Part shown: piece by piece, positions 5,998 to 24,235 of the stretch
Numbering within the stretch: position 1 is the first letter of the stretch
Layout: every line of letters begins with the position of its first letter
Virus record (IMG/VR): IMGVR_UViG_3300025597_000005
Length of the DNA stretch: 64,000 nucleotides
Source of the DNA: a virus
Taxonomy: Duplodnaviria > Caudoviricetes
Reading direction: 5' to 3' (one strand)
Notes under the pieces: model-generated
What the model was told of the DNA's origin: nothing
What the model saw: the letters and a program-made list of their open reading frames with translations, nothing else
Database searches by the model: none
Program-made: the position numbers and the translations under genes

Positions 5998-5999
5998 CC

Positions 6000-6430: not shown

Positions 6431-6485
6431 TAGTAGACCAACAAGGATCCTTGTGCTATAGTATTAGCACAGTAAGGAGCACATC

Positions 6486-6800
6486 GTGACCGACAAAGGC
6501 AAGAGTCTGCAACAAATGGTTAACCAGCTCAATGCAGAGATGCGTAAGCTGGAGATCCTGACTTCCAAGTTCGATCACGACACAATCTGGGAGGTATACA
6601 AGACCAATGCCGACATCGAACAACTCGAGCTCGTGCATCAAGGCCTGGATCGTGACATTGCTGAGAGCAAGATGACACGCCTTTTCGCCGCGTCGGGTTA
6701 CGAACAAGACCTGATGCTCCACAACCGCAAGACGCAGATGCCCATGGCTCTGCTGTTCAGCGAACGCACCAAACAAGCTCGCGGGGAATGTCAAGGATGA
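6486..6800 (+). CDS. hypothetical early protein
   Basis: Element 6434, RBS AAGGAG, GTG start. Confidence 0.75.
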   Translation: MTDKGKSLQQMVNQLNAEMRKLEILTSKFDHDTIWEVYKTNADIEQLELVHQGLDRDIAESKMTRLFAASGYEQDLMLHNRKTQMPMALLFSERTKQARGECQG

Positions 6801-6991
6801 AGAAGGTTCTGATCCTCTACCGGAAGAGCAAGTTCTATCCGGATCCGGTCGTCTGCTGCGCCATTGAAGTCATCGACGGCAGCTACGTCGATGCCATGCG
6901 TCAACGGGATGCGTGGGTGCATAACTTCACGCAGAAGTTTCCCGAGTTCAAGGATGCAACCTTTTCAACCGAAGAAACTGAAGTGATCTAG
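6788..6991 (+). CDS. hypothetical protein
   Basis: Overlaps previous stop. Confidence 0.65.
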   Translation: MSRMKKVLILYRKSKFYPDPVVCCAIEVIDGSYVDAMRQRDAWVHNFTQKFPEFKDATFSTEETEVI

Positions 6992-6999
6992 GAGTAATC

Positions 7000-7182
7000 A
7001 TGCTCTGCTCACATGGTGTGCCGTACGAGTCCCGCTGCTCTCACTGTGCCCAAGAGGCTATGGAAAGAGTGCGAAATCAGGCGAAATTTACACCGCCCAA
7101 CAAGGACGACGTGTCCGAGCAGCAGAGACATGACTTCTGGGCACAGATCTATCGTCAAGGTGTTGACAAGCCGGTCTACTGA
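7000..7182 (+). CDS. hypothetical Cys/His-rich protein
   Basis: RBS AGGAG; CSHG...CSHC. Confidence 0.65.
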   Translation: MLCSHGVPYESRCSHCAQEAMERVRNQAKFTPPNKDDVSEQQRHDFWAQIYRQGVDKPVY

Positions 7183-7197
7183 CCACATAATACATAC

Positions 7198-7608
7198 ATG
7201 GAACAGCACCTGCGTGATCAGATCAAGCAAGTAGCGGATGAAGTTCGTTACTGGGCTGAATGCACTGCACCCAGTCTGGGGCATGACGAAGAAAGCCTCA
7301 GTGGCATGTGTGCCATTGCTAGTGCCGAACTGTGGAAGAAGTTGCGCATGCGTAGCATCCACGGCACCTTGCATGTGGCCGAACACGACTGGGGTTCGCA
7401 TGCCTTCCTGATCATCGACGACCATGTGGTTTGCGTCACGGGCACTCAGTTCCCCGAGTTTCGAAATCAACCTGTCGTGATCATCCACAGCAAGGAAGCT
7501 GAGGTTCACGAATACTATCAATCGATGTGGGAGTTCATGACTCCCAAAGAGCTCCGCGAGTGGCAGCAACGCTATCGCTGGCCCAAGAACCAAACCGCAA
7601 CGGCATAA
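7198..7608 (+). CDS. hypothetical protein, possibly transglutaminase/papain-like; leaderless
   Basis: GMCAIAS...HAFL...VCVTGTQF; ATG 6 nt after CATAAT. Confidence 0.7.
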   Translation: MEQHLRDQIKQVADEVRYWAECTAPSLGHDEESLSGMCAIASAELWKKLRMRSIHGTLHVAEHDWGSHAFLIIDDHVVCVTGTQFPEFRNQPVVIIHSKEAEVHEYYQSMWEFMTPKELREWQQRYRWPKNQTATA

Positions 7609-7617
7609 AGATTTCAA

Positions 7618-7875
7618 ATGAGCGTCCAGCAGAGACTCAGTGTTGCCCAAGAGGCGATGCAGATGACTCCGTACACGCACCGGTATGCCGGCCGTGAACT
7701 CATGCTATTCGAGAAGTGGGAGATCCTTTTCGAAGGGCAGGTGGTTCGTACGATCACCGGGGTCGACAACGACTTCATGGTCCACATGATCTGGATGATG
7801 AATACTGCCTACTCCTGCGGTTACCTGAGCGGCCACACGGCAGGGCAATTTTACAAGGAAGAACCTGCGGTCTGA
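7618..7875 (+). CDS. hypothetical protein
   Basis: Clean ORF in gene run. Confidence 0.65.
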   Translation: MSVQQRLSVAQEAMQMTPYTHRYAGRELMLFEKWEILFEGQVVRTITGVDNDFMVHMIWMMNTAYSCGYLSGHTAGQFYKEEPAV

Positions 7876-7972
7876 TTTGGATTCCTAAATAACAAAAATA
7901 AATCAGAAACCCGGATTGACCTTTGTGCGCAATTTGCGTACACTATACGCATACACACAGAAGGATCTGTAA

Positions 7973-8212
7973 ATGCTGCACAGTGTCGAACAAGTCAAGG
8001 CCGCTATGGCTCTTAGCACGGAAGAGCTGCGTCGGATTACCGAATCAAGCGGTTACCGCAGCGAAGGCTACAAGAGCGCAGAGTGCTGGGGCATGAACGA
8101 AAGCGGCCGCTTTGTGTACTTCGTCGAATATATCGATAGTACCAATGGCAACGGCATGTGCGAGGTCTACATCACCATCAAGGCCGGTGGCGGCTACGAA
8201 TTGGAGTTCTGA
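7973..8212 (+). CDS. hypothetical early protein
   Basis: Promoter 7916, RBS AAGGA. Confidence 0.75.
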   Translation: MLHSVEQVKAAMALSTEELRRITESSGYRSEGYKSAECWGMNESGRFVYFVEYIDSTNGNGMCEVYITIKAGGGYELEF

Positions 8213-8214
8213 TC

Positions 8215-8523
8215 ATGAGCATGCGTAAGCATAAGCGAGTCGTGCAGGCTCGCATGAAGCACGACCTGTTCTACAACTTCCCCATCGGGCAATGGTTGGA
8301 TCGCTTCAAGATGATCCCCGTGTCGCCCGAAGTGAAGAGGCTCTCCGAGGAATTCTGCAAGCAGATCTTCGAAAACGGCAAGACGATCGCCATCGATGGT
8401 GTCGACTTCTTCATCACCGAACCCCACATCCAGCACGAGATCTGGAAGCGTATGCAACAAGAAAAGCTGATCGGCAACGAACTGCCGGGCAGCAACGTGG
8501 TTTTCGAAGGAGCTACTAACTGA
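8215..8523 (+). CDS. hypothetical protein
   Basis: ATG 8215 after GGAG. Confidence 0.7.
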   Translation: MSMRKHKRVVQARMKHDLFYNFPIGQWLDRFKMIPVSPEVKRLSEEFCKQIFENGKTIAIDGVDFFITEPHIQHEIWKRMQQEKLIGNELPGSNVVFEGATN

Positions 8524-8610
8524 GTTTCATCTTCCTGTAGACCAGAACCCTCAGTCCTGCTATAGTAATGACACTGCAATAACGCAGCAACAAACGTGGA
8601 GCACACTGCA

Positions 8611-8796
8611 ATGAAGCGTCTTTTCCGAGTCAACAACGAGTTCTTCGGCGACAAGAAGGCTGCCAAGGCGGCCCGTGGCGAACCGACCAAGAAGGCCCAG
8701 ACCGAGACCGTGAACGGCCGCACGATCCACTACCCGGCGACCTACGCCAGCAAGGTGGAACTGGGCCCGGATCACCGCCACTACGCCGGCCGCTGA
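8611..8796 (+). CDS. small basic hypothetical protein
   Basis: Element 8538; RBS GGAG. Confidence 0.75.
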   Translation: MKRLFRVNNEFFGDKKAAKAARGEPTKKAQTETVNGRTIHYPATYASKVELGPDHRHYAGR

Positions 8797-8828
8797 ACCC
8801 CCAACCGTCAACGACAAGGAGAACTGCA

Positions 8829-9086
8829 ATGCTGAAGATCACCGTCAAGCGCGAGAAGGTCACCATCGACGACCGCCGTGCCGTCATCGTGCTGGCCCGC
8901 GGCCGGAAGCCGGCTGACATCGCCAAGGTCCCGCAAGAAGCGTTCCTGCGCCAGCAGCTGAAGGCGCGCATGGGCATCGCCAAGGACGAACCGGCTTCCG
9001 AATCCATCAAGGAAGCGGCCAAGCAGATGGCTGCCGCACTGGCCCCGGCTGCTACCCCGGCCAAGGAAGAAGCACCGGCGGCGTGA
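8829..9086 (+). CDS. small Ala/Lys-rich protein
   Basis: RBS AAGGAG; followed by a GC hairpin and T-tract (9093-9160). Confidence 0.75.
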   Translation: MLKITVKREKVTIDDRRAVIVLARGRKPADIAKVPQEAFLRQQLKARMGIAKDEPASESIKEAAKQMAAALAPAATPAKEEAPAA

Positions 9087-9219
9087 GTTTCCGGGGGAGG
9101 CGTCGCATGGGCCTGTGTGCCCCGGACACGAGTTCCGTAGCCTCCCCCATTTTTCTTCCTTCTGTTGACAACAGGCCCCAACGCCTGCATAATACAGACA
9201 TCGCAACAAGGACTGCAAC

Positions 9220-9690
9220 ATGCTGCCGAATCGAATCCCCACCGGGCTGCGAAACACCACCATCCCGAATCCCGTGGACCTCAAGGGCAAGCGCGGCTAC
9301 CGAAACGCCTACCAGGGCAGTGTCGATGGCTACGACTTCCTGAAGCAACGCCAGAACTTCGAGGACCTGCAGGCACGCCTGGCCGAAAGCGGCGAGATGC
9401 TGGTCGAAGTGGCCGGTGTGATGTACGACGGTGACAACGGTTACAACCACCGCTTCGTGGCAACGAACAAGTCGGGCACCATCGTCTGGCACAAGTACGT
9501 CGGATACGCTGCCCAGAGCGGCCAGAACCACGTCTTCATCCACGGTCGTCGCATCAAGGTCAGCGTCTTCCTGAAGCTGGGCCTGGGCGAACGCCATGCG
9601 CTGATCTCGGGCAAGGAAGACTTCATCAACAAGGTCTTCACCAAGAAGCGCATGAGCTTCCTCGACGAAGCTGGTTCGCTCTGGTGCTGA
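9220..9690 (+). CDS. hypothetical early protein
   Basis: Element 9165. Confidence 0.8.
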   Translation: MLPNRIPTGLRNTTIPNPVDLKGKRGYRNAYQGSVDGYDFLKQRQNFEDLQARLAESGEMLVEVAGVMYDGDNGYNHRFVATNKSGTIVWHKYVGYAAQSGQNHVFIHGRRIKVSVFLKLGLGERHALISGKEDFINKVFTKKRMSFLDEAGSLWC

Positions 9691-9808
9691 GTTCCGAGGG
9701 GCCTGTGATCCCGATGCGCAGAACGCCGGTTGGGCCCCTCTTCTTTTCCTGTTGACAGCTGATCCCAGCGGTGCTATTATATAGACACTGCAACACACAA
9801 GGACCAAG

Positions 9809-10312
9809 ATGAAGTACGCTACGCTCATCAACGCTGTCGCTGCAATCCAAGGTGCCAGCTTCATCGGCATCGACACGCACACCGACGTCAAGCTCACCGG
9901 CGGCAAGTCCAACCCGCAGCAAGGGCGCGTCACGAAGCGCATGACGGGTGCGACGGTGATGGCCTTCACGAACCAGAACGTGAACGCCTACAAGGAAATG
10001 GTCCAACGCCGCCTGGGCAAGGAAGGCAAGGACCCGCAGGACTTCCAGCTGCACGAGCGCGCATGGGGCACCCGTGTCCCCAACATGCCCATCGTGGAGC
10101 ACAAGGGTTCCTACTACCTGGAAGTGATCTTCCTGAAGCCCGGCCAGGTCGAATACCTGCTCGACGGCGTGGTGGTCCCCGAGTCCGAAATCCAGGGGCT
10201 GCCGCCCAAGCGTGAGGCGGAGCAAGGCGGGCTCGACGACAAAGTCATCCTGCGTGACTTCAAGGCGGAGAGCATCACCGAGCTGCGCATCAACGGCCAA
10301 GCCTTCAACTAA
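9809..10312 (+). CDS. conserved-type phage hypothetical protein (GGKSNPQQGRVTK...RAWG...HKGSYYL)
   Basis: Element 9752. Confidence 0.85.
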   Translation: MKYATLINAVAAIQGASFIGIDTHTDVKLTGGKSNPQQGRVTKRMTGATVMAFTNQNVNAYKEMVQRRLGKEGKDPQDFQLHERAWGTRVPNMPIVEHKGSYYLEVIFLKPGQVEYLLDGVVVPESEIQGLPPKREAEQGGLDDKVILRDFKAESITELRINGQAFN

Positions 10313-10321
10313 GGAGCAGGC

Positions 10322-10582
10322 ATGCTGACTATCGCCAAGCTGGCCGAACAGTTCCCCATCCGGGAACGTCGTACCACCCAACCGGGCTGCATTAGCAAGC
10401 CCGTAACGGGTTGGATTCCGTACGCCTTCTACGAGGCACACCTGGCGGAGATCAAGGCTGCACGCAAGGCCCACCCCAGCAAGACCCGTGCCTACTACAG
10501 AGGGCCGCGTGCATGGACGGGCGCTTCGACCACCGCGGTGAAGAACGCACGGAGCGTGGTCATCTACGCAGAAGGTCGCTAA
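10322..10582 (+). CDS. hypothetical protein
   Basis: RBS AAGGAG. Confidence 0.75.
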   Translation: MLTIAKLAEQFPIRERRTTQPGCISKPVTGWIPYAFYEAHLAEIKAARKAHPSKTRAYYRGPRAWTGASTTAVKNARSVVIYAEGR

Positions 10583-10687
10583 AAAAGCAAGGGCATATTC
10601 CTGCCTAAGGTTTTCACCTAAAGGTTGACGTGCGATTCCTGTAGTGCTATTATATAGACACTGCACAAACACAAACGGGAACCCAAG

Positions 10688-10840
10688 ATGATCTTCCTGT
10701 CCCACATCTACCGTCAGTCGCACACGGACTTCTTCTGCGCACAGCAGGACCAAGTGTACGGCAACCTGGTGCGAATCCCCACTCCCCAAAACGAAATCGT
10801 GGACCTCCAGTGCATGTACTGGATGGGCGGCGAACTGTAA
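10688..10840 (+). CDS. 50-aa hypothetical protein (not in ORF track)
   Basis: Element 10625; MIFLSHIYRQ...WMGGEL. Confidence 0.65.
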   Translation: MIFLSHIYRQSHTDFFCAQQDQVYGNLVRIPTPQNEIVDLQCMYWMGGEL

Positions 10841-10852
10841 AAGGAACACATC

Positions 10853-11269
10853 ATGCTGCAACAACTCATTCGTGAAGCGGTGCGTCAAGCCCGGGAAGTG
10901 GATTCCGAGGTCAGCTTCCGTGCCAGCTACGGCGGCCGCGGCATGTATGACCGCCGCTGCATCGGTGTCGTGGGTTCCAACTCGGAATGCCAGCGCGTGA
11001 TTGCCAAGAGCATCGTGATGCTTCGTGAGAAGCTCAAGACGGTGCAGCTGGGTTCCAGCGAGGAGGAGCAGGACAAGGTGTTCGAGGAAGCGGTGATGAC
11101 GCTGACGGAACCCTGCGAGGACTCCATGGGCCGCAGCGTGATCTTCTACTGGCCCGAGCTGTCGGCCATCGACACCAGCGATGAAATGCCCGATGTGCGG
11201 GACTTCGAGGACTTCGAGGAGTACCAAGAAGCCCTGGCCGAATGGAAGGATGCGCAGGAAAAAGTGTAA
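10853..11269 (+). CDS. hypothetical protein (SYGGRGMYDRRCIGVV...DSMGRSVIFYWP)
   Basis: RBS AAGGA; stop lies in the TGTAAC of the next element. Confidence 0.85.
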   Translation: MLQQLIREAVRQAREVDSEVSFRASYGGRGMYDRRCIGVVGSNSECQRVIAKSIVMLREKLKTVQLGSSEEEQDKVFEEAVMTLTEPCEDSMGRSVIFYWPELSAIDTSDEMPDVRDFEDFEEYQEALAEWKDAQEKV

Positions 11270-11332
11270 CAGTGGTAGACTGCAGGAGCCGATTCCTGCA
11301 TAATACAAACACTGAGACACAAGGAGTGCAGC

Positions 11333-11659
11333 ATGACTGACATGAACGAACTGGTCGACCACTACCTGGACCAAGAAGGTTGCCGCCGTACAGAAGGGCG
11401 TGCCGGTCTGGTGATGCTCGCCACCCTTTCCCAGGGTCTGGGCTACAAGGACCCCATGTACTTTGGCCAGTTGACGCCGAAGGCTTCCATGGGCGACCTA
11501 ATGGAGTTCTTCCAGGACAACCCGGGCGCAGTGCAAGCCGTGGTGGAATGGGTCAAGGAACAGCGGGCCCCCGAATGGCAGGAGAAGCTGCTGGAGATCT
11601 GCCCGGATTTCGATTCCGAGGAAGAGCTCAGCAGCCACGAGGACTATCGCCCGGACTGA
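11333..11659 (+). CDS. hypothetical acidic protein
   Basis: Element 11276. Confidence 0.8.
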   Translation: MTDMNELVDHYLDQEGCRRTEGRAGLVMLATLSQGLGYKDPMYFGQLTPKASMGDLMEFFQDNPGAVQAVVEWVKEQRAPEWQEKLLEICPDFDSEEELSSHEDYRPD

Positions 11660-11733
11660 GATGTAACACTGGTAGACAGGCGGTTCCTGGTGTTGCATAA
11701 TAAGGTCATAGCAACACAGCACAGGAGCAAAAG

Positions 11734-11988
11734 ATGAAGGAACTGATGACGCGTAAGGAATTCATTGCTTACGCTCACGAAGTCCTCGATCCCGAAGCCC
11801 TGGAGTGCCTGTACGAGCGCATCTCCGAACACAACGGGGAGGTGGCTGCATTCGGTGATAGCTGGCCTGGCGCTCTGGTTCAGATTCATGATTCCGTAGG
11901 TCGTGTAAAGAGCATCGAAGCTCGCCTGGCACAACTGGAAGGTCGCGCCCCCCGCGATTTTCGATTCCGCATCTGCTCACCTCGCTAA
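11734..11988 (+). CDS. hypothetical protein
   Basis: Element 11673. Confidence 0.8.
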   Translation: MKELMTRKEFIAYAHEVLDPEALECLYERISEHNGEVAAFGDSWPGALVQIHDSVGRVKSIEARLAQLEGRAPRDFRFRICSPR

Positions 11989-12004
11989 TCTACTGGAGAA
12001 TATC

Positions 12005-12268
12005 ATGGGTTATGGTACCCGCCCTGGCAGCCTCGGCCACACCATTCAGACTTTCTGGCCGGATGACACCGACACGGAGATGTACCTGGATGCATCACAG
12101 ATCTGGACTCTGACCGAAATCCAGGCACGCATCGACGAAAAGTGGCCCGGCGCCTCTTCGGAGAACATCCTCTTCAGCAGCCAGAAGATCCACACGGACT
12201 GCCTGGGGTACGACCTCTACGACCCCTTCGACTACACGGATTTCATCATCATCCGGCGTATTGTGTAA
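12005..12268 (+). CDS. hypothetical protein
   Basis: RBS GGAG; stop in TGTAAC. Confidence 0.8.
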   Translation: MGYGTRPGSLGHTIQTFWPDDTDTEMYLDASQIWTLTEIQARIDEKWPGASSENILFSSQKIHTDCLGYDLYDPFDYTDFIIIRRIV

Positions 12269-12335
12269 CAGAGGTCGACGCCAGGAACCGGTTCCTGCAT
12301 AATACACACATTGCAGCAAACAACTGGAGCACACA

Positions 12336-13286
12336 ATGACCCCCGTCGAACAAGTCCGTGCAAAGATTGCCCAGGTCATCGAACTGGCCAAGGTGCGCTA
12401 CGGTGTTGACCTGTCCCGTGTACCGGTTTCCTTCAACAAGGGCCGGGCTGCTGGCTGGGCTTCGTGGCAGCTGGATCGCCGCACTGGCATCACCCACTAC
12501 AAGGTGAAGTTCAACGTGGACATGATCATGCGTGGTGATCCTGAAGTCCTGCGCGACATGGTCGAGGACACCATCCCGCACGAATACGCACACATCCTGT
12601 GCTTCATGCGCCCGGAACTCGGCAGGAACCATGATGCGGGCTGGCGTTCGGTGTGCATTGCGCTGGGCGGCAACGGTCGCGCTACTCACGAACTCGAAGT
12701 GGTCTGCGGGCGCGGCACGACCTACGAATACACGACCACCACCGGTGAAAAGGTGCGACTCGGCGACAAGAAACATGCGCAGGTGCAGCGCGGCGTCCCG
12801 ATCACCTACCTGAAGAAGTCGCTGGGTTCCGTCAACCAGTACTGCGCCTACAGCATCGTGGGCATGAATGGCCGCACGCTGCCGCAGCCCATCGTCAAGA
12901 AGGCCGTCAACGATCCGGAAGCCATCGAGCACGCCAAGAAGATGCAGGACCCGGTGGAATTCGTCAAGATGCTGATCAACCGCCCCGTGACCTTGACGGT
13001 TACCGACCTGACCGGACCCAAGCCCAAGGTCAGCAAGGTGGCGCTGCCTCCCTTGTGCCCGCCCCCTGCAAGCCCCGCAAAGGCCCCTGCAACGCTGCCG
13101 CAGGCGGGCGAGTCCAAGGCTGCTACGAGCCGGCGGATCATGCTGTCTGGTTATCAGTCCGGCAAGAGCTACGAAGAAATCCTGCAGGCGATGATCGCGG
13201 CGAATGGCTACGACAGGCAACTGGCCCGTGGCACGTTCAAGGCCAATGCCCCCAAGGTCGGCATCCCCGAGAGTTTCTACAAGTAA
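12336..13286 (+). CDS. SprT-like zinc metalloprotease with C-terminal helical (putative DNA-binding) domain
   Basis: GRAAGWA, HEYAH (HExxH), HDAGW; Pro-rich linker. Confidence 0.85.
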   Translation: MTPVEQVRAKIAQVIELAKVRYGVDLSRVPVSFNKGRAAGWASWQLDRRTGITHYKVKFNVDMIMRGDPEVLRDMVEDTIPHEYAHILCFMRPELGRNHDAGWRSVCIALGGNGRATHELEVVCGRGTTYEYTTTTGEKVRLGDKKHAQVQRGVPITYLKKSLGSVNQYCAYSIVGMNGRTLPQPIVKKAVNDPEAIEHAKKMQDPVEFVKMLINRPVTLTVTDLTGPKPKVSKVALPPLCPPPASPAKAPATLPQAGESKAATSRRIMLSGYQSGKSYEEILQAMIAANGYDRQLARGTFKANAPKVGIPESFYK

Positions 13287-13341
13287 TAGACAGGGAGGAA
13301 CCTCCCTGCTATAGTAACGACATCGCAGCAAGGAGCACAAC

Positions 13342-13500
13342 ATGCCCATGACACTTGAGCAATGGATTGCAGCGGTCTGTGCCGCAACGAAACAGACACG
13401 AGACCAGCTCGAAAGGAAGCCCTATCATGTGTCTCTTGCAGACATGCATGATGCTGGCCTGAGTGTCGAGGAAGCGGTTGACGAATTCACCGAAGAATGA
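13342..13500 (+). CDS. 52-aa hypothetical protein (not in ORF track)
   Basis: Element 13287, AAGGAG; MPMTLEQWIA...EFTEE. Confidence 0.7.
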   Translation: MPMTLEQWIAAVCAATKQTRDQLERKPYHVSLADMHDAGLSVEEAVDEFTEE

Positions 13501-13501
13501 A

Positions 13502-13774
13502 ATGCCCATGACGACCGAACACCTGGAGCGACTCATGCGCGGTCAGATCCGCTCCACGGACATGTGGGTGGATCAATGGCAGCGGTACAAGGATGTCGCT
13601 GCCATGCGAAACGTCGCCTTGGCCCTGGGCAAGTTCTACGGTCTCCTGTCGGCCTACATCGCCCTCAACGACGGCGAACTGGAGATGCCCGGGGATTTCA
13701 AGACCAAGCAGATCGAATACGGCGAGGTCTACAACACCCTCGGTCTCAACGAAGTCGTCGGGCTGCCGCGATGA
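13502..13774 (+). CDS. hypothetical protein
   Basis: ATG follows previous stop. Confidence 0.7.
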   Translation: MPMTTEHLERLMRGQIRSTDMWVDQWQRYKDVAAMRNVALALGKFYGLLSAYIALNDGELEMPGDFKTKQIEYGEVYNTLGLNEVVGLPR

Positions 13775-13977
13775 GCTGGGACTTCGACGCAGTGATTGCC
13801 GAGGCGAAGCGTCGCTACGGTAAGGCGGTGTGCATCGACATGATCGGCGACGCCCTGGAAGAGGACACCTTCAACGACGCAGTCCAGATGATCCTCATGG
13901 ACAGCGTCATGTGGGATTCACCTCGCGGTGATCCCATGGATCCCGACATCTGGGCAAAAATCCTCCCGGCCAAATAG
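13771..13977 (+). CDS. hypothetical acidic protein
   Basis: ATGA overlap; MSWDFDAVIA. Confidence 0.7.
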   Translation: MSWDFDAVIAEAKRRYGKAVCIDMIGDALEEDTFNDAVQMILMDSVMWDSPRGDPMDPDIWAKILPAK

Positions 13978-14049
13978 ATGTAACAACGGTCGACAGTAGG
14001 AACCGGTTCCTGCATAATACAGACATTGCAACACAACGCAGGTCGTAAA

Positions 14050-14445: not shown

Positions 14446-14490
14446 CAGGCGGCACCTGCTGTAGCATAATACATGCAACAAGGAGTTCAC

Positions 14491-16336: not shown

Positions 16337-16338
16337 AC

Positions 16339-16617: not shown

Positions 16618-16678
16618 GGTTGACCTGCGGCTCCTGTTGTTGCATAATACAAGCATTGCAACGCAGGAGCTACGCAAA

Positions 16679-16921
16679 ATGGGACACCCGTACAAAGCAG
16701 TCCTCACCTACAAAGCCAAGAAGGGCATGTTCCCTGCCATGCGTGGGGAGATCTACGAGGGCGACATCCGCATCGGGACCTTCAAGCGTGGTCCCACCGT
16801 CGACCACTTCGTGCCTCCCATCGAGCACAAGTTCTTCAGCGAGGCTGCCAAGAGTCGCTTCAGCGGCTTCGCAGACTGCCTCTCCATCGAAGAGACCATC
16901 GAGGCCATCATCCCTGGTTGA
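16679..16921 (+). CDS. hypothetical protein
   Basis: Element 16620, AGGAG; stop in TTGACA. Confidence 0.75.
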   Translation: MGHPYKAVLTYKAKKGMFPAMRGEIYEGDIRIGTFKRGPTVDHFVPPIEHKFFSEAAKSRFSGFADCLSIEETIEAIIPG

Positions 16922-16952
16922 CAACACACGACCAACCTGCTAGGATACACAC

Positions 16953-17219
16953 ATGATGCAACTGATCAAGACCGAGCTCTTCATGGACAAGAACCTGAAA
17001 GGGTTCTTCCTGGAACTGCTCACCGACGGCACCAATGCACTGGTATGCATCGAGGGCAACCCTTACTTCATCAACACGGAGAAGGTGCAGACTCTCGAAG
17101 ACCTCGGGGCGGTGTTTTACAACGTGCGACTCGACGTGTTCGGGGCCGTGATCAAGCTGCTGCAAGGGGCGCAAGACCCCAGCATCCTGTCGGATGCAAT
17201 CGCAAGGGAGTACGCATGA
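16953..17219 (+). CDS. hypothetical protein, leaderless
   Basis: ATG 6 nt after -10 TAGGAT. Confidence 0.7.
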   Translation: MMQLIKTELFMDKNLKGFFLELLTDGTNALVCIEGNPYFINTEKVQTLEDLGAVFYNVRLDVFGAVIKLLQGAQDPSILSDAIAREYA

Positions 17220-17449
17220 TCCTGTACGGATATATCTTGCCAGTGGTGCTACTGGTACTGCTCTTCGGTCTCATCGTCTGGAATGATCGGAGCAAGAAGG
17301 GCCGGGCAGGCATCACGGTGAGGGACTTCTTGATTGGAGTCCTTCTCGTAGTCACACCGGTACTCAATATCGTTGTGTGCCTTGCACTCATCTACTTCAT
17401 CTTCGACCAACACCAAGAGTTCGAATTCCTGAACAAGGAACTGTTCTGA
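17216..17449 (+). CDS. small membrane protein
   Basis: GGGAG RBS; two TM segments. Confidence 0.7.
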   Translation: MILYGYILPVVLLVLLFGLIVWNDRSKKGRAGITVRDFLIGVLLVVTPVLNIVVCLALIYFIFDQHQEFEFLNKELF

Positions 17450-17758
17450 TGTTGACCTTCCCCATGGTCTTCCTTTACCTCCTGCTCGCTTCAGTGGGCA
17501 GCGAGGTTCTACCTCCAGTGGATTATAAGGCAGTTTCCAAGGCCGAGATCCAGATTCAAGAACAGGTTCCGCCGGCAGATTCTGCAGACAAACCTTGAGG
17601 TCAGATTCGGTTTTTTGCTTGCACTTTGCAGGCGACTTTTAGCCCCTACAGCAAGAGATCAAGAGCCAATGCAGGCTCAGGTAGCAGGATCAGAATCAAG
17701 CCCCCTTGGTATTCATTGCCTTGTTGACCTGTTGCACACAACGCAGTACAATACACAC

Positions 17759-18001
17759 ATGAAGAAAGTAACCTGCACGCAGATCCTCACTGTCACGTTC
17801 GTAGGCATGTTTGTCTACGGTGCAGCAACTGGGGTCTGGGGTGCCGCACTGATGGCACTGGGAATGGCAGGCTTCGTTTACTGGGCTGATGGGTATTTTG
17901 ACCGTCAGAACCGTGCCTGGCTTCTGCAAAGGAAGCGCTCGCGTGATACACTCACTGCGATGGCGGACGAAGATTGTGAATGTAGCGGGAGCTACATGTA
18001 A
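17759..18001 (+). CDS. small membrane protein, leaderless
   Basis: TTGACC-17-TACAAT-ACACAC-ATG. Confidence 0.7.
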   Translation: MKKVTCTQILTVTFVGMFVYGAATGVWGAALMALGMAGFVYWADGYFDRQNRAWLLQRKRSRDTLTAMADEDCECSGSYM

Positions 18002-18165
18002 GAGTCTCCGAGTCGGAACTGGATTATGCTAGATGGCCGGCCGGTCTAAGACCGGTGAGAAGCTAAGCCTAATAATCCATACTCGATGGCGTGGTGTGAA
18101 CCACAAACAGGAATAGGGTGGGTACCTAAATACCCACCCTTGACCTCTACCCTTAGGTAGGAATC

Positions 18166-18363
18166 CTACAGCCCCGTCTTGTTCAGAAGGGCATCCACGC
18201 GGGTCAGTTCGGCCTCGCTTCGCGCGATGGAGTCAGGGTCCAGGCTCGTCTGCTTGACCTGGTGGCCCATCTGTGCGAGCGTCTCCCGCACGTTGAAGCC
18301 CCACTGGCTGTCGGGCAACTTCAGATGCGTCACCTGGTCGACCAAGTATACACGAACTGCCAT
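18166..18363 (-). CDS. hypothetical protein
   Basis: AAGGGGA RBS on minus strand, downstream of 18436..19017. Confidence 0.65.
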   Translation of the reverse strand: MAVRVYLVDQVTHLKLPDSQWGFNVRETLAQMGHQVKQTSLDPDSIARSEAELTRVDALLNKTGL

Positions 18364-18435
18364 CTCAGATTCCCCTTTTTAGGTGTTGCGGTCACCCGAA
18401 AAGGCCCTTGCGGGCCTTGTCCGGGATTCTGGATC

Positions 18436-19017
18436 TTAGACCCAGTACAGCTTGGCCTTCTTGGCCGCAGCCGCCTTCTCCACCAGGGCCTTGGCGTCCT
18501 CGAAGCTCAGGCCCTCGGCAACCACCGTTCCGTCGGACTTCTTGCAGACCTTGAACACCGTCTGCTCCACCGGGGCGGCCTCGTTGACCGTCACCGTCTG
18601 GACGGAGGTGTTCTCCTTGACGCCTTCCGACAGCAGCGTGCCGCTGGGGATCGCCGCCGTTTCGGCCTGCATGCGGGCGATGTGCTGCTCGCGCGTCTCG
18701 AACGGAGCGAACACCAGCGCGTCACGCGCCATCGCGGCCTTCTCGGCGTTGCTCTTGCGCCCGCCCTTCTTGTCCTCCGGGCGACCCAGGCCTTCCACCA
18801 GCGTGGGGTTGGCGGTCTTGTAGTCGATGAAGGCCGTGTTGTAGTGCGTCGCCGCGCTGGCCAGGGTGATGCCGAACTCGCTCATCAGCACCGCGATGCA
18901 GTGCTTGCGGAAGGCGGTGTTGGCCTTCTTCATGTCGGTCCCGAACTCGCCGTTGACGCGCTTGGCGTTCTCGGTGGCGAACAGGTTCTTCGCGTAGGGA
19001 CGGATGCCCTTGTCCAT
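18436..19017 (-). CDS. putative DNA-binding protein, paralog of 20963..21412
   Basis: Shared MDKGIRP, KKANT.FRK, FGITLASAATHYN, GLGRPEDKKGGRK; minus-strand element at 19087. Confidence 0.85.
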   Translation of the reverse strand: MDKGIRPYAKNLFATENAKRVNGEFGTDMKKANTAFRKHCIAVLMSEFGITLASAATHYNTAFIDYKTANPTLVEGLGRPEDKKGGRKSNAEKAAMARDALVFAPFETREQHIARMQAETAAIPSGTLLSEGVKENTSVQTVTVNEAAPVEQTVFKVCKKSDGTVVAEGLSFEDAKALVEKAAAAKKAKLYWV

Positions 19018-19199
19018 GTTGCGTTCCTTTCTGTGTACTGCGTTATTGCAGTGTCGTTACTATAGCGCGAAACAGTTCCTGCGTCAACCAATAAAGTGTA
19101 ACAGTTTCTGCCCCGCTTCGCTGCGCGACACACATCGTGCAGCGCATGTTCGTAACTTTAACGCCAGAAACATCCACTGTCTACCATTGTTACACCTCC

Positions 19200-19272
19200 T
19201 TACATCTTGTGGATATGTGGATAACTTTGGACACGGCCAGCCTTGGGGCCACCATCCCCCTCTGTTCGACCC
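19200..19272 (-). ncRNA. candidate small RNA (copy 2)
   Basis: Minus-strand promoter TTGACA(19304-19299)-16-TATAAT(19282-19277); core GGGGA.GGTGGCCCCAAGGCTGG shared with 6064-6086. Confidence 0.4.
19208..19224 (-). promoter_or_regulatory. tandem DnaA-box-like sites
   Basis: TGTGGATAA (19216-19224) is a perfect TTATCCACA; TGTGGATAT (19208-19216) has one mismatch. Confidence 0.45.
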
Positions 19273-19394
19273 CTCCATTATAGCGCAAACAGGATCCTTG
19301 TCAATCCATTGTTACGTCTGTTACAGTGTAACAATGGTTGACGGGTGGAAGAATGCTTGTTATAGTTACGACACTGCAAAACACAGAGGCGTAC

Positions 19395-19622
19395 ATGAAA
19401 CTGCAGGAGTTCATTGAGTTCTGCAAGCCCCTGCCCAATACAATGGATGACAGGGAGAGGGTCTACCTTGTCTACTATGACGACAAGGAGCTCTGCGAGG
19501 AGATCTACGCGGAAGCAGAAGGCAGGCTGGGTGTCAACCTCGAGGAAACCCCTGAGCCCATGCGGGCTTCGCTGGAGGCGATTGGGCTGCACTACGGCGT
19601 GGAGATTCTTGCTGATTGGTGA
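19395..19622 (+). CDS. hypothetical acidic protein
   Basis: Element 19338. Confidence 0.75.
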   Translation: MKLQEFIEFCKPLPNTMDDRERVYLVYYDDKELCEEIYAEAEGRLGVNLEETPEPMRASLEAIGLHYGVEILADW

Positions 19623-19700
19623 GATGTAACGAGTGTAACAGTGGTAGACGAAAGTCTGCCCCTGTTGCATACTACGAACATCGCAGCAAGGAGCAACGAA

Positions 19701-20009
19701 ATGGAACTTCAACTCAACGCATACAGCACCCAAGGGCTCACCCGCTACCCCGCCCGTGGCCTGCTGGTGGGCGAGGCGAGCACGCTGGGCCTGAAGCCCG
19801 GGCATGTGTGGGATAGGCTCTACGACGATGCGTGCGACGAGGGTATCGCGCTTCGCAGCCACAAAACGGGCATGGTGTCAACCTGGCATGTGGTGGAAAC
19901 CATCACGCAGGATGGCGAGGTGCTGGGCTGGATGTTGAAGCCCACAACGGAGTCCGTGTGGCGCATGCCCGAGCTCCGCAACTACCAACTCAACATCGTC
20001 AACGACTGA
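19701..20009 (+). CDS. hypothetical protein
   Basis: Element 19645, AAGGAG. Confidence 0.8.
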   Translation: MELQLNAYSTQGLTRYPARGLLVGEASTLGLKPGHVWDRLYDDACDEGIALRSHKTGMVSTWHVVETITQDGEVLGWMLKPTTESVWRMPELRNYQLNIVND

Positions 20010-20193
20010 AGCAAGGGGCCTAAGCGCCCCTACAAGCGTTCGCGCAGCCATCAGCAGAGTCTAACACAGGCCCTGCTGGTCGCCGCTTGTAGGGCTTCTA
20101 AAACACCGGGCTGTTACATTTGCTTACATCTTGCCCGTTGACGGAATGCTCCAAAGGTCACATAATACAAACATCAACAACACGGAGCGAGAG

Positions 20194-20295
20194 ATGCTGC
20201 TGATCAAGATCCTCCTGGCCTGGTTTGCACTGTCCTGCCTGTTCGCCTGGGGCTGGGCCCGCTTCCAAAAGGGCATCAACCCGAGAGGGGAATGA
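20194..20295 (+). CDS. 33-aa membrane peptide (not in ORF track)
   Basis: Element 20138; MLLIKILLAWFALSCLFAWGWARF. Confidence 0.6.
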   Translation: MLLIKILLAWFALSCLFAWGWARFQKGINPRGE

Positions 20296-20360
20296 TGTAA
20301 CAGTGGTAGACAGGGAGGAAACTCCCTGCTACAGTATAGACACTGCAACAAGGAGTTCAC

Positions 20361-20471
20361 ATGCAACTGATCCACGAAATCATGCCCCTGGTCGGAGTCG
20401 GTGCTACGGGCCTGCTGGCGCTGCTGAGCGTCGCGGTGATGCTGGAGATGGCGCTGGAAGGCTCCAAGTGA
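20361..20471 (+). CDS. 36-aa membrane peptide (not in ORF track)
   Basis: Element 20307, AAGGAG. Confidence 0.6.
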   Translation: MQLIHEIMPLVGVGATGLLALLSVAVMLEMALEGSK

Positions 20472-20599
20472 ACAACAGCAAGCAGATCCGCGAAGAAGCT
20501 GCCCGCCTGCGGGATGAGCTCATCTCCCACCGCGAGTACCTGCGCCTGCTTGCACGCTGCGGCGTGAAGCGTCAGCCCACGCACGGCTGGGTGGCCTGA
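20468..20599 (+). CDS. 43-aa hypothetical protein
   Basis: GTGA overlap with previous gene. Confidence 0.5.
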   Translation: MNNSKQIREEAARLRDELISHREYLRLLARCGVKRQPTHGWVA

Positions 20600-20668
20600 A
20601 AGATGTAACACTGGTAGACGCAGGAAAGTTTCCTGCTATACTAAGAACATCGCAACAAGGAACACGCA

Positions 20669-20872
20669 ATGAGCATCACTGCAAAGACCGACCTCCAGCT
20701 GTTCGAAATGCTCTGGAAGGCCCCGAAGGATGCAACCCTGGGGCAACTCCTGGAGCGCAAGCTGGCGGGCGATGAACTGGTCGCGCGGCACGGCGCCACC
20801 ATGGCCCTGAGCATGTTCGGCGGCTGGTGCATGGCGGTGCAGAAGGATCCCGAGCTGGTCCCGAAGAAGTAA
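20669..20872 (+). CDS. hypothetical protein
   Basis: Element 20615. Confidence 0.75.
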   Translation: MSITAKTDLQLFEMLWKAPKDATLGQLLERKLAGDELVARHGATMALSMFGGWCMAVQKDPELVPKK

Positions 20873-20962
20873 CAAGATGTAATAGCGGTAGACGGAAGAG
20901 TCCCAATCCGCTATTATACAAACACTGCAAACAACGCAGCAACGCAAACAAGGAAGCAGATC

Positions 20963-21412
20963 ATGGACAAAGGAATTCGCCCGTTCGCCCGAAACAAGTT
21001 CGTGGAACTCAACGAACTGCGCCGCAAGGGTGCCGCCCCGTACGACGGCAAGAAGGCCAACACCCTGTTCCGCAAGGACGTGATCGCGTCCCTGATGGAG
21101 GCGTTCGGCATCACGCTGGCGTCCGCTGCAACGCACTACAACGACGCCTTCCGCTTCATCAAGGAGCAGAACGCCGAGCTGGTCAGCGGCCTGGGCCGCC
21201 CGGAGGACAAGAAGGGCGGGCGCAAGAAGAAGGTGGTGGCGGAAGCCGCTCCGGAAGTCACCCGCGAGCAAGTGCTGACCAACATGCTGGCGGCCACGGG
21301 TACGGTGACCCCGGCGCTGCAGGCCGAGGTGGAAGAAGCGCAGCAGGCGGTGGAGCAGACGCTGGAAGCCGCGTGCGGCGAGGCCAAGGCGTTCGAGGAG
21401 GCGCTGGTCTAA
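20963..21412 (+). CDS. putative DNA-binding protein, paralog of 18436..19017
   Basis: Same motifs as the paralog; element 20889. Confidence 0.85.
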   Translation: MDKGIRPFARNKFVELNELRRKGAAPYDGKKANTLFRKDVIASLMEAFGITLASAATHYNDAFRFIKEQNAELVSGLGRPEDKKGGRKKKVVAEAAPEVTREQVLTNMLAATGTVTPALQAEVEEAQQAVEQTLEAACGEAKAFEEALV

Positions 21413-21483
21413 GCAGATGTAACAGTGGTAGACGGGCGGAGCAATCCGCCCTATACTACATTCATCGCAACAAGGAGCGCAAG

Positions 21484-21672
21484 ATGTACACCAAGGACAG
21501 CATCGCCGAGGTACCCACTGGCTGGTCCATCGACATCCTGGACCCGGATGGTGACTCGATCGCGACCCTGGATTTCGTCATGACGAAGGGGCAGCTCTAC
21601 AGCGACTACGTGGAACGCTGCCTGCATGATCGTGCAGATGCCCTCCTGTCCCACCTGAACCGCGGCCTGTAA
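21484..21672 (+). CDS. hypothetical protein
   Basis: Element 21429, AAGGAG; MYTKDSIAEV. Confidence 0.75.
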   Translation: MYTKDSIAEVPTGWSIDILDPDGDSIATLDFVMTKGQLYSDYVERCLHDRADALLSHLNRGL

Positions 21673-21746
21673 CGAAGTGCAACAATGGTAGACAGGGGCT
21701 CCGACCCCTGCTATTATACAAACACTGAAACACAACGGAGCAACAG

Positions 21747-21869
21747 ATGATTTTCGATCAAGCTCAACTCAAGGCCTGGTGGGATCACGTCTTCCGCAGC
21801 GTGGAGCAAGGCTTCCGCCCGCTCACGTTCGACCAGTTCCGCATCCGCACGCTGCTGGTGAAGTTCTGA
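21747..21869 (+). CDS. 40-aa hypothetical protein (not in ORF track)
   Basis: Element 21689, GGAG. Confidence 0.6.
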   Translation: MIFDQAQLKAWWDHVFRSVEQGFRPLTFDQFRIRTLLVKF

Positions 21870-22038
21870 TGCGCTGCGAACTGTAAGCGAAAGCCTGTGC
21901 GCAGGCCGGAGCAGGTGGATTGTGCCACACCTGCCGTAAGAAGTCAATGGGCGTCGCGTAACACTTGCGAGGCGGATAGCGTAACCGTCAGATGTAACAG
22001 AGGTAGACCTGTGGCGTCGGAAGTGCAATAATAGCCAC

Positions 22039-22221
22039 ATGGATGATACAAAAGCACTCAACAAATGGCTTGCGAGCCGAGAACCCCGATGGGCGCTCAA
22101 GCGGTGTCTAAGGGAAGCCCAGGCTCGCTGCAGACAAGAGCTCAAGGAACTCAAGCCCCGAGCAATCCTCACCGGCGAGGTGGTCGCAGCACAGGACGTG
22201 AAGTTTCCCACCTGGAAGTAA
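22039..22221 (+). CDS. hypothetical protein, leaderless
   Basis: TAGACC-17-AATAAT-AGCCAC-ATG. Confidence 0.65.
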   Translation: MDDTKALNKWLASREPRWALKRCLREAQARCRQELKELKPRAILTGEVVAAQDVKFPTWK

Positions 22222-22282
22222 CAGAGGTAGACAGGACACATCCAACGCTGCATAATATACACATAGCAGCAAGGAGCACAAG

Positions 22283-22546
22283 ATGGCAAAGGTCAGCATC
22301 CCGGAGAAGATCAAGAAGGCGTTCGAGGACTACGGGCACTCCTACACGCTGGACCAGGCAGTGGCGGTGCGCGACGAACCCAGCCGTGACTGGTACGCGA
22401 TCCTCTTCAAGGTCGAGGGCGAGCTGTCTGCGGTGGACTTCCAGCGCGACATCAATGGCGACTGGGAAGTCAGCAACGACTACGTCGGCCCCTTCGACTC
22501 CATCAAGGAGTTCAAGGACGAGAAGCTCGTCAGCACCTGGTACTGA
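22283..22546 (+). CDS. hypothetical acidic protein
   Basis: Element 22228. Confidence 0.8.
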   Translation: MAKVSIPEKIKKAFEDYGHSYTLDQAVAVRDEPSRDWYAILFKVEGELSAVDFQRDINGDWEVSNDYVGPFDSIKEFKDEKLVSTWY

Positions 22547-22612
22547 GATGTAACAGTGGTAGACAGGCATCCTGTGATGCCCTATACTACGAACATCAAC
22601 AAGGAGTTCACC

Positions 22613-22963
22613 ATGCACCAACAGATCCGCGGCGTCATCAGCCAACTCAAGTGGTTCCCCGGCCAGGTGGTGCTGGTTGATCTCACCGCGTCGGAGCAGA
22701 GCCCGCTGGGACGGCTCGTGGGGCGGCTGTACTACGACACCGACGCCATGGAGGTGGTTGACAGGGCCTGCCGCACGGGCTATCCGCACAACGGTGGCTT
22801 CCACACCTTCCAGTTCAAGGGCCCGGCCCGGGATGCAGTGGCCATGATGGAACTCTTCAAGGAGACCCTGGAGGATCGTACACGAACTGACGAGGAACGT
22901 CAAGTCTGCAACGAGTTCAGTTACGTCTCGCAGGAGATCCTGGCAGGCCGCCGCAAGGTGTAA
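22613..22963 (+). CDS. hypothetical protein
   Basis: Element 22560, AAGGAG. Confidence 0.8.
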   Translation: MHQQIRGVISQLKWFPGQVVLVDLTASEQSPLGRLVGRLYYDTDAMEVVDRACRTGYPHNGGFHTFQFKGPARDAVAMMELFKETLEDRTRTDEERQVCNEFSYVSQEILAGRRKV

Positions 22964-23025
22964 CAGTGGTAGACACAGGGCTCCGTTGGTCACATAATAA
23001 GAACATGGACAACACGGAGCACACC

Positions 23026-23373
23026 ATGCAAGTCGAGCAAACCGAACTGCAAGAGCTGGAGTCGATCTACTGCGACATGCACAAGGATGTCTACGGCGTC
23101 AAGGCCCGCTGGTACCGTGCAGAGAGCGTGGAGCAAGCCCGCAAGGACATCGACCGCCTGAGCGAAGAGCTCCGCGTGCAGATGGAGCAGGACAAGGTGT
23201 TCCAGCAGGAGGCCATCAAGGCTTTCGAGGAGCTCGCTGCATCCTTCGGCGGCGTGGAGACGGCGAAGCGGTGGCAACACCAGGCCTACGGCACGGACGG
23301 CGATGACGAAGCCCTGGAGTACCGCATGGGCCTCCCGTTCGGTTACTTCAAGGAGCAGGCCGCAACAGTGTAA
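23026..23373 (+). CDS. conserved-type phage hypothetical protein (DMHKDVYGVKAR...EYRMGLPFGYF)
   Basis: Element 22970. Confidence 0.8.
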   Translation: MQVEQTELQELESIYCDMHKDVYGVKARWYRAESVEQARKDIDRLSEELRVQMEQDKVFQQEAIKAFEELAASFGGVETAKRWQHQAYGTDGDDEALEYRMGLPFGYFKEQAATV

Positions 23374-23434
23374 CAGTGGTCGACCAAGGAGGGCTCCTGC
23401 TGCATAATACGAACATCGCAGCAAGGAGCCCAAG

Positions 23435-23566
23435 ATGGAACAGATCAAAGTCCGGGTGTTTGGTCAGTGGCACGATGCGGAGTGGGACGAGGTGACAGGC
23501 CTGGTCTACTTCAATGGCATGCATGCCAGCCTGGAATGCTTCGAGCACTACCTCCGCGTCGTCTAA
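23435..23566 (+). CDS. 43-aa hypothetical protein (not in ORF track)
   Basis: Element 23380, AAGGAG. Confidence 0.65.
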   Translation: MEQIKVRVFGQWHDAEWDEVTGLVYFNGMHASLECFEHYLRVV

Positions 23567-23575
23567 GGAACTACC

Positions 23576-23731
23576 ATGCGTGAACTCCCCATCCACCTCC
23601 TGACCTGCATGCTGCTGGTCACGCCCCCGGGCATCATCCTGTTCATGTGCAAGCTCACCGACGGGGCCATCGAAGGCCCGGGCGAAGTGTACGACACCTT
23701 CTACGACCTGGTCGACTACTGCCTGAGCTGA
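23576..23731 (+). CDS. 51-aa hypothetical protein (not in ORF track)
   Basis: AAGGA RBS. Confidence 0.55.
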   Translation: MRELPIHLLTCMLLVTPPGIILFMCKLTDGAIEGPGEVYDTFYDLVDYCLS

Positions 23732-23733
23732 TC

Positions 23734-23841
23734 ATGGAATTCCACAACGCCTGGTCGCAGGCCCTGCTCGATGAGTATAAGGGTCACAACGGGTCCCTCT
23801 GGGACTTCGCGGAGATGTTCTGCATGGGCCGCGAGATGTAA
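23734..23841 (+). CDS. 35-aa hypothetical protein
   Basis: Stop in TGTAAC. Confidence 0.5.
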   Translation: MEFHNAWSQALLDEYKGHNGSLWDFAEMFCMGREM

Positions 23842-23902
23842 CAGTGGTCGACAGGAGAACTCCTTCTTGCTATAGTAACGACACTGCAACAAGGAGCCCA
23901 AG

Positions 23903-24163
23903 ATGATCGAGCGCAACGTGCATCACCAAGGTCGTACCCCCAGCCGCACCTGCATCGCCGCACCGGAGTTCGACAAGAACAGCGGCAAGTGGTCTGCGTG
24001 CTTCGAGACGTGGCGCGGCATCCCGGGCGACGAGTACAAGGCCTTCACGTGCGGCAGCGCCCCTCTGTTCAGCAGCGAAGCGGAAGCCTATGCCGCAGCA
24101 GACCGTGCGCTGGACACCCTGCAGGCCCTGGATCGGTTCCCCAACATGTGCGAGATGTGGTGA
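23903..24163 (+). CDS. hypothetical protein
   Basis: Element 23848. Confidence 0.8.
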   Translation: MIERNVHHQGRTPSRTCIAAPEFDKNSGKWSACFETWRGIPGDEYKAFTCGSAPLFSSEAEAYAAADRALDTLQALDRFPNMCEMW

Positions 24164-24235
24164 GATGTAACAGTGGTAGACAGCAGGTACCCATCCTGCT
24201 ACTATACAAACACTGCAACACAACGGAGCAACGAA

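Follow-up and report, generated by a model that had tools for sequence, protein, structure and literature searches.

Why would the promoters of a phage carry hairpins in the spacer between their -35 and -10 hexamers, with stem sequences that differ from one promoter to the next? This question is raised by IMG/VR virus record IMGVR_UViG_3300025597_000005, a stretch of phage DNA of 64,000 nucleotides (nt) that we analysed at its full length and call the window. A reading of the window made from its letters only (the sequence-only reading) had proposed that the spacers of many of its promoter-type linkers are hairpins that keep their pairing while their sequence varies. We found 36 such linkers on one strand over ~19 kb, each ~80 nt long and heading one small ORFan, and a linker precedes almost every gene in this block.

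5382 to 24205, + strand: array of 36 promoter linkers before small ORFans, with sigma70-type consensus, in a block of 58% guanine plus cytosine (GC).

A linker consists of a -35 hexamer T[TAC]GAC[N], a 17-nt spacer, a -10 hexamer [CT]AT[AT]NT, the leader A.A.ACA.(C/T)GCAACA, AGGAG and ATG. The spacer has 17 nt in 35 of the 36 linkers, the exception being the 16-nt spacer at 20615, and a promoter consensus scan gave 48 promoter-like sites compared with 6.8 in shuffles. The linkers are most simply read as early promoters for the host RNA polymerase (sigma70-type) in the hyperplastic early-gene array of a PA5oct-like jumbo myophage, because PA5oct promoters carry TTGAC and TATAATA motifs; the PA5oct paper reports 32 promoters with them (PMC7318152).

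The zone searched in each linker was the spacer plus the adjoining 3 nt of either hexamer, and we recorded its longest perfect stem, allowing loops of up to 10 nt. Three controls of 1000 replicates each were used, namely spacer shuffle, alignment-column permutation and random 23-mers from the same 58% GC region. Some outer pairs come partly from conserved promoter bases, CA at the end of TTGACA and TG ahead of the -10; the column permutation preserves the positions of the conserved CA...TG and CCTG and accounts for them. Stems of at least 5 base pairs (bp) occur in 16 of the 36 linkers, compared with 3.3, 4.5 and 3.3 in the three controls, respectively. For stems of at least 6 bp the numbers are 11 compared with 0.7, 1.75 and 0.7, and for those of at least 7 bp they are 8 compared with 0.14, 1.16 and 0.27; the observed values were matched by 0 of the 1000 replicates in every control. 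The linkers are paralogues, and arms are shared by 12282 and 13998 and by 13291 and 20311, giving ~12 independent stems. The proposal thus holds for "many" linkers (16 of 36, ~45%, well above the shuffled and GC-matched expectations of 3.3-4.5) and not for all, ~20 of the 36 being without a stem of at least 5 bp.

All 11 inverted repeats quoted in the sequence-only reading are present where it placed them and with the arms it gave. Perfect stems of 5 bp or more were found in five further spacers (7928-7938, 9172-9187, 14738-14755, 23387-23398 and 23853-23864), and the spacer hairpins of the window are the following.

6441 to 6454, + strand: ACAAGGA/TCCTTGT, 7 bp, no loop, between the -35 at 6434-6439 and the -10 at 6457-6462.
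7928 to 7938, + strand: CGCAA-t-TTGCG, 5 bp, spacer hairpin.
9172 to 9187, + strand: CAGGC-cccaac-GCCTG, 5 bp, spacer hairpin; a second hairpin with a T tract lies upstream at ~9095-9164.
11281 to 11300, + strand: TGCAGGA-gccgat-TCCTGCA, 7 bp, extending into both hexamers.
12282 to 12297, + strand: perfect 16-nt palindrome CAGGAACC/GGTTCCTG.
13291 to 13308, + strand: CAGGGAGG-aa-CCTCCCTG, 8 bp, spacer hairpin.
13998 to 14011, + strand: palindrome AGGAACC/GGTTCCT, 7 bp, paralogue of that at 12282.
14738 to 14755, + strand: GCAGG-ttcctgtt-CCTGC, 5 bp, spacer hairpin.
20311 to 20328, + strand: CAGGGAG-gaaa-CTCCCTG, 7 bp, spacer hairpin with GNRA loop.
20620 to 20636, + strand: GCAGGAAA-g-TTTCCTGC, 8 bp, in the sole 16-nt spacer.
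21434 to 21451, + strand: GGGCGGA-gcaa-TCCGCCC, 7 bp, spacer hairpin with GNRA loop.
21693 to 21710, + strand: CAGGGG-ctccga-CCCCTG, 6 bp, spacer hairpin.
22566 to 22581, + strand: GGCATC-ctgt-GATGCC, 6 bp, spacer hairpin.
23387 to 23398, + strand: AGGAG-gg-CTCCT, 5 bp, spacer hairpin.
23853 to 23864, + strand: AGGAG-aa-CTCCT, 5 bp, spacer hairpin.
24182 to 24200, + strand: AGCAGG-tacccat-CCTGCT, 6 bp, spacer hairpin.

For 23387-23398, RNAfold predicts an alternative (-26.8 kcal/mol, z -5.5), with the 3' arm and the nucleotides after it paired to the leader and Shine-Dalgarno sequence further downstream. The stem sequences are unrelated to each other, e.g. ACAAGGA, CGCAA, GGGCGGA, GGCATC, CAGGGG, GCAGGAAA and AGGAG among others.

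The hairpins recur in relatives of this phage. We collected IMG/VR contigs by searching for the linker pattern, including a complete 369-kb genome with terminal repeats (IMGVR_UViG_3300045971_000577, here G002), and the conserved early protein encoded at 9809-10312 of the window recovered, as a query, 74 metagenome loci; the comparative set holds more than 270 linkers from ~50 contigs. Spacer hairpins were found in 14 of 33 linkers of one relative, G001 (2.7 expected), in 8 of 42 of G002 (2.9 expected) and in 35 of 160 further unique metagenome linkers (11.4 expected), the last including 9 stems of at least 7 bp compared with 0.44. The spacer hairpins are a real and recurrent feature of this clade, and the linker family is widespread in uncultured PA5oct-like jumbo phages.

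The loops tell more about what is folded. Over all genomes there are 71 distinct hairpins of at least 5 bp, and 70% of them have loops of 4-8 nt compared with 35% in shuffles; 4-nt loops make up 24% compared with 8.6%, while loops of 0-2 nt are scarcer than expected (22% compared with 44%). Eight of the 22 tetraloop hairpins have a GNRA loop on the + strand, in four genomes and on differing stems; three of these loops are gcaa, two are gaaa, and the others are single cases of gtaa, gtga and ggga. The complementary class TYNC occurs in 0 of the 22, the expectation is 2.2%, and the binomial p for GNRA is ~1e-8. Loop length and the one-strand GNRA preference point to real folding of the + (sense) strand. 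When hairpins were taken over 63-nt linker windows, including those around the -10 and the start site, their mismatches were G:T in 32 cases and A:C in 4, compared with 13 and 11 in coding-sequence controls, and this bias again points to the sense strand.

These loops argue against a fixed operator and against a neutral palindrome, because neither has a reason to prefer GNRA on one strand. The operator would be a dyad-symmetric CAGG-N-CCTG bound by a dimeric phage repressor that shuts off the early promoters. CAGG...CCTG does occur in 11 of the 36 spacers, and repressors classically act at sites between the -35 and the -10. We nevertheless consider it very improbable, since the half-sites are 5-10 nt apart, several strong stems do not resemble CAGG (GGGCGGA, GGCATC, CGCAA and ACAAGGA), asymmetric GNRA loops are irrelevant to a duplex operator, and the candidate proteins have no Pfam or PHROG DNA-binding domain. 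Indeed the two candidate "reader" proteins, at 18436-19017 (- strand) and 20963-21412 (+ strand), gave no Pfam or PHROG domain of any kind. The sequence-only reading had itself preferred structure to a fixed operator from a CAGG/CCTG spacing of 7-10 nt. That range is right for the repeats it listed and widens to 5-10 nt over all linkers, and its preference is borne out by the unrelated stems, the variable registers, the favoured 4-8-nt loops and the one-strand GNRA.

The hairpins might also have no selected function. The spacer would then be the only free 17 bp in a recombining repeat of ~80 bp, in which palindromes arise, and stay perfect, through intrastrand template switching or gene conversion, aided by the fixed CA...TG. 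The stems are perfect with few wobble pairs, the presence of a hairpin is optional and changes from one orthologous linker to another, and their frequency varies widely among related genomes, from 0 of 11 linkers (L097) to 10 of 29 (L092). A fixed-register covariation analysis of the spacers, a check suggested with the original proposal, yielded a signal that is only modest (7-8 of 500 shuffles reach the score) because the hairpins use several registers; this too would suit a neutral origin. However, column permutation with CA/TG and CCTG kept gives 4.5 hairpins where 16 are seen, and a mutational mechanism should be blind to the strand and favour short loops or none, so the 4-8-nt loops and one-strand GNRA are unexpected. 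We regard a purely neutral origin as unlikely.

Homologues of 9 of the 36 window genes stand behind a linker in G001 or G002, and these relatives are too distant for mapping cassette junctions; none above ~75% nt identity was found for a substitution-level test. An apparent tie between the hairpins and a non-consensus -35 (TAGAC or TCGAC) was significant in the window and in G001 and was not replicated in the 160 metagenome linkers (3 of 23 compared with 32 of 137), and we treat it as a lineage effect.

Our best explanation, favoured but unproven, is the second option of the sequence-only reading, a stem-loop in the RNA of the upstream transcript. In T4-type phages, the cassettes known as PeSLs are repeated units of a sigma70 promoter and a stem-loop in hyperplastic regions, with repeats that mediate gene shuffling (PMC2839356, PMC4122927), and their stem-loops terminated transcription in a lacZ reporter (PMC2839356). 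We suggest, at somewhat short of an even chance, that the hairpins are the stem-loop half of PeSL-like cassettes, nested here within the spacer, and that they attenuate or pause the read-through RNA from upstream or protect its 3' end. Because a sigma70 promoter starts ~7 nt after its -10, at least the 5' arm of every hairpin should lie outside the message of the gene that the promoter serves. Only read-through transcripts of the upstream gene, or the displaced non-template strand of the DNA, would then be able to form a hairpin. In the read-through RNA it would stand ~15-25 nt beyond the stop codon of the upstream gene, where it could be an attenuator, a pause site or a stem-loop protecting the 3' end, and would insulate adjacent cassettes from each other; the repeated linkers might also act as recombination seams. 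Both the nature of the folded molecule, which we take to be RNA, and the effect of the hairpin on it are inferred.

Several observations weigh against this RNA stem-loop. The stems are not followed by a U tract, and the consensus terminator scan, in which no stem was called on the + strand, also shows no excess of terminators in the region (18 compared with 17.9). About 55% of the linkers have no spacer hairpin, and orthologous linkers, i.e. those before homologous genes, do not conserve their spacers and carry a hairpin with another stem or none. The spacer-internal stems are nearly all perfect Watson-Crick, with G:T and A:C mismatches unbiased (3 and 2), and RNA folds of the sense and antisense spacers are equally stable, so the strand signal of the spacer hairpins comes entirely from the GNRA loops. 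GNRA and GNA loops, with their sheared G:A pair, also stabilise hairpins of single-stranded DNA. Finally, the strong hairpins occupy the whole spacer between the two hexamers, with their centres at spacer positions 7.5-9.5 in 49% of cases compared with 19% in shuffles, which also fits a role at the promoter itself.

Such a role could be a switch at the DNA level, in which extrusion of a spacer hairpin or cruciform, or a fold of the non-template strand, alters the -35/-10 geometry and is gated by supercoiling or by a structure-binding protein of phage or host. The exact fit between the hexamers, the perfect Watson-Crick stems and the ability of GNRA and GNA loops to stabilise DNA hairpins would all suit it. 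There is also a precedent, since the N4 P1 hairpin placed between the rrnB -35 and -10 abolished promoter activity in a manner dependent on gyrase, and activity returned with novobiocin (Dai et al. 1997, reviewed in PMC4496689). But superhelicity beyond the physiological range is normally required for arms of 5-8 bp whose loops are arbitrary, the N4 exception being due to a specific loop (PMC4496689). The registers are moreover not fixed, ~55% of promoters that are otherwise identical lack the hairpin, orthologous promoters do not conserve it, and a cruciform folds both strands while the favourable loops are on the + strand only. We think a DNA switch rather unlikely. The premise of the sequence-only reading that sigma70 spacers are normally unconstrained is in any case overstated, as at least one article argues in its title and abstract that sigma70 senses the spacer (PMC3130263).

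The other options offered by the sequence-only reading, hairpin promoters like those read by the N4 virion RNA polymerase or folded recombination sites like attC, were rejected and are largely refuted, their defining features being absent; we give them next to no credence. Hairpins at early-gene starts that vary in sequence and conserve structure, and the cassette-like architecture of the array, would suit these options. The linkers, however, have canonical -35/17/-10 geometry, no RNA polymerase domain was found in two complete relatives, and the open reading frame of 3261 amino acids matches a family of virion structural proteins (PHROG) and not a polymerase. PF00623 had no match in these relatives; PF00940 had none either, a result that is uninformative as its control was also silent. 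The opening part of the PA5oct paper states that no RNA polymerase-like proteins were found (PMC7318152). The bases that define N4 promoters (-11 purine, -10G, -8G and +1C) were tested, and there is neither a conserved 3-nt loop nor conservation at -11, -10 and -8, the loops being varied and 0-10 nt long; the stable GNRA loops are on the non-template strand. As for attC sites, these are imperfect inverted repeats of ~57-141 bp with extrahelical bases, recombined by the IntI integrase. The hairpins here have 10-21 nt and are mostly perfect, and no integrase search of a systematic kind was made.

The linker family also has hairpins in other places. A terminator-like hairpin with a T tract ends right at the -35 of the next linker at ~9095-9164 (before 9165) and ~9682-9751 (before 9752) of the window, and these two are the true PeSL arrangement. 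In more distant relatives we found a hairpin with a T tract upstream of the promoter (L091, L095 and L099) or a hairpin of 9-13 bp enclosing the -10 and start site. Some relatives (L092 and linkers of the L002 type, e.g. 7002 of G002 and 8804 in L042) have a hairpin that encloses the -35, ACAGGGG-ttgaca(g/a)-CCCCTGT. The linkers of the TATTAT class (9752, 10625, 15143, 15768 and 16067) have no spacer-internal hairpin; the last 6-7 bases of their spacers, G[CT][GA]GTG, pair with G:U wobbles to CACTGC just past the -10, giving a small hairpin whose loop contains TATTATATAGA. A further linker pairs its spacer with its own leader.

16620 to 16690, + strand: no spacer-internal hairpin; the linker's leader and Shine-Dalgarno sequence (GCAACGCAGGAGC) pair with its spacer (GCTCCTGTTGTTGC), and the resulting loop holds the -10 and the start site (-24.7 kcal/mol, z -4.3).

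This pattern is shared by four linkers (16620-16690, 23380-23450, 22970-23040 and 23848-23915), in which the spacer's 3' half (..CTCCTG(C/T)TGC) can base-pair with GCA(A/G)CAAGGAG in the linker's own leader and Shine-Dalgarno sequence; the -10 and start site then lie within the loop, at -16 to -27 kcal/mol. On read-through transcripts the next ribosome site could be masked in this way. Spacer-leader pairing was rejected as a general rule, with p 0.12 in the window and 0.35 in G001 for native compared with swapped pairs; G002 and the pooled metagenome set do reach significance, with lineage structure as a confounder there.

We speculate that the spacer hairpins could be a natural regulatory device built into sigma70 promoters, acting either as a structural switch in DNA or as a tag on read-through RNA, which we consider doubtful. 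In the DNA form, an extruded or non-template hairpin would gate the early promoters by topology or through a structure-binding factor and would be the natural counterpart of the N4 hairpin in rrnB; gating of sigma70 promoters by a spacer hairpin would then be seen for the first time in nature. In the RNA form, the tag would be present only on read-through transcripts and boxB-like in those copies with a GNRA loop, which would fit the spacer to Shine-Dalgarno pairings of some linkers. Read-through and locally initiated messages would then be handled differently in termination, antitermination, decay or translation.

If instead the favoured RNA stem-loop on the upstream transcript is right, a single element of 29 bp would serve both to start one message and to mark or end the one before it, and such an insulator would be extremely compact and could be useful for synthetic operons. 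Cassettes of the PeSL type are thought to drive the expression and shuffling of "dark matter" ORFans in large phages, and the more than 270 linkers are a ready comparative set for experiments.

Genes for a myovirus baseplate and tail fibres lie downstream of the array, in addition to the 3261-amino-acid virion structural protein, and the baseplate wedge is 46.7% identical to its counterpart in the Pseudomonas jumbo phage PA5oct; the source is a PA5oct-like jumbo myophage. Megablast of the window against isolate phages gave no match at the DNA level. The block at ~4.3-25 kb (4300-25000) has 50-59% GC, mostly ~58%, compared with 35-47%, mostly ~40%, in the rest of the window, and contains small genes nearly all on the + strand. 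Within it the + strand shows a skew of A over T of ~+0.15. The linker-rich early regions of G001 and G002 are also GC-rich (50-56%). In G002 the linkers cluster at 1-30 kb and 359-369 kb on one strand, and the array spans its direct terminal repeat, as expected of the early genes that are injected first.

Fifteen of the 16 scanned proteins downstream of linkers have no annotated Pfam or PHROG function. The sole named domain among them is an SprT-like zinc-metalloprotease domain in a protein of 316 amino acids (12336-13286; Pfam E 6e-6, just above the cut-off), and a metagenome search with this protein gave zero relatives. Rfam and transfer RNA scans of the window found nothing. Minus-strand genes form a short block at 18150-19310 that is equipped with linkers from this family as well (-35 at 19087 and 19304) and makes a divergent hub, and the first + strand promoter past this block (19338) has no hairpin.

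A box [AG]TGTAACA(G/C)(T/A)GG lies directly upstream of many -35 hexamers, with 13 exact copies between 11263 and 24176, and often provides the TAA of the upstream gene. The same box at 19319-19333, in the divergent promoter hub, makes the palindrome TGTTACAgTGTAACA. The box may serve as an operator or mark a junction between cassettes.

Are such hairpins present in cultured phages? A pattern scan of PA5oct (MK797984.1) with TTGAC-N18-NATAATA gave 8 sites, too few to judge. At one of the 8, 25643-25672, a 6-bp spacer hairpin GCATAT-agca-ATATGC is seen by eye, and the trait may extend to cultured relatives.

The known systems differ in how near they come to these linkers. The early promoters of the N4 virion RNA polymerase are also phage early-promoter hairpins with stems whose sequence is free if pairing is kept; they are used by that polymerase, have a 5-7-bp stem, a 3-nt loop and specific -11/-10/-8/+1 bases, fold on the template strand and number three per genome, none of which holds here. 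In the engineered rrnB promoter with the N4 P1 hairpin (Dai et al. 1997, reviewed in PMC4496689), a small hairpin likewise fills a sigma70 spacer. That construct is artificial, has a special loop that extrudes at physiological supercoiling and is inactive when extruded, whereas the hairpins here are natural and diverse in stems and loops. Intrinsic terminators share the GC-rich stem of 5-8 bp and the GNRA tetraloops. In the canonical terminator a U tract follows the stem, whereas here the -10 hexamer, (C)AUAAU or UAUAGU in RNA letters, comes next; canonical intrinsic terminators were rejected, a stem being present and a T run and a call by the terminator scan being absent. GNRA loops are common in terminator hairpins.

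The PeSLs (RB49/phi1, PST/T4 and nt-1/KVP40; Arbiol et al. 2010, PMC2839356; Comeau et al. 2014, PMC4122927) are the closest, being likewise dozens of intergenic cassettes among small ORFans, with a strong sigma70-like promoter (N17 spacer), a GC-rich variable stem-loop, a Shine-Dalgarno sequence and a start codon, and with downstream genes that differ between related phages. Their stem-loop is a terminator just upstream of the -35 and is followed by an AT-rich tract, whereas here it lies between the -35 and the -10 without a T tract, and the sequence that precedes the -35 in many linkers, [AG]TGTAACAGTGG, is not AT-rich. Only ~45% of the cassettes here have the hairpin, and the host genome of the array is that of a PA5oct-like jumbo myophage with a 58% GC block in a genome of ~40% GC. 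The new element is the placement of the hairpin inside the promoter spacer, together with its GNRA signature.

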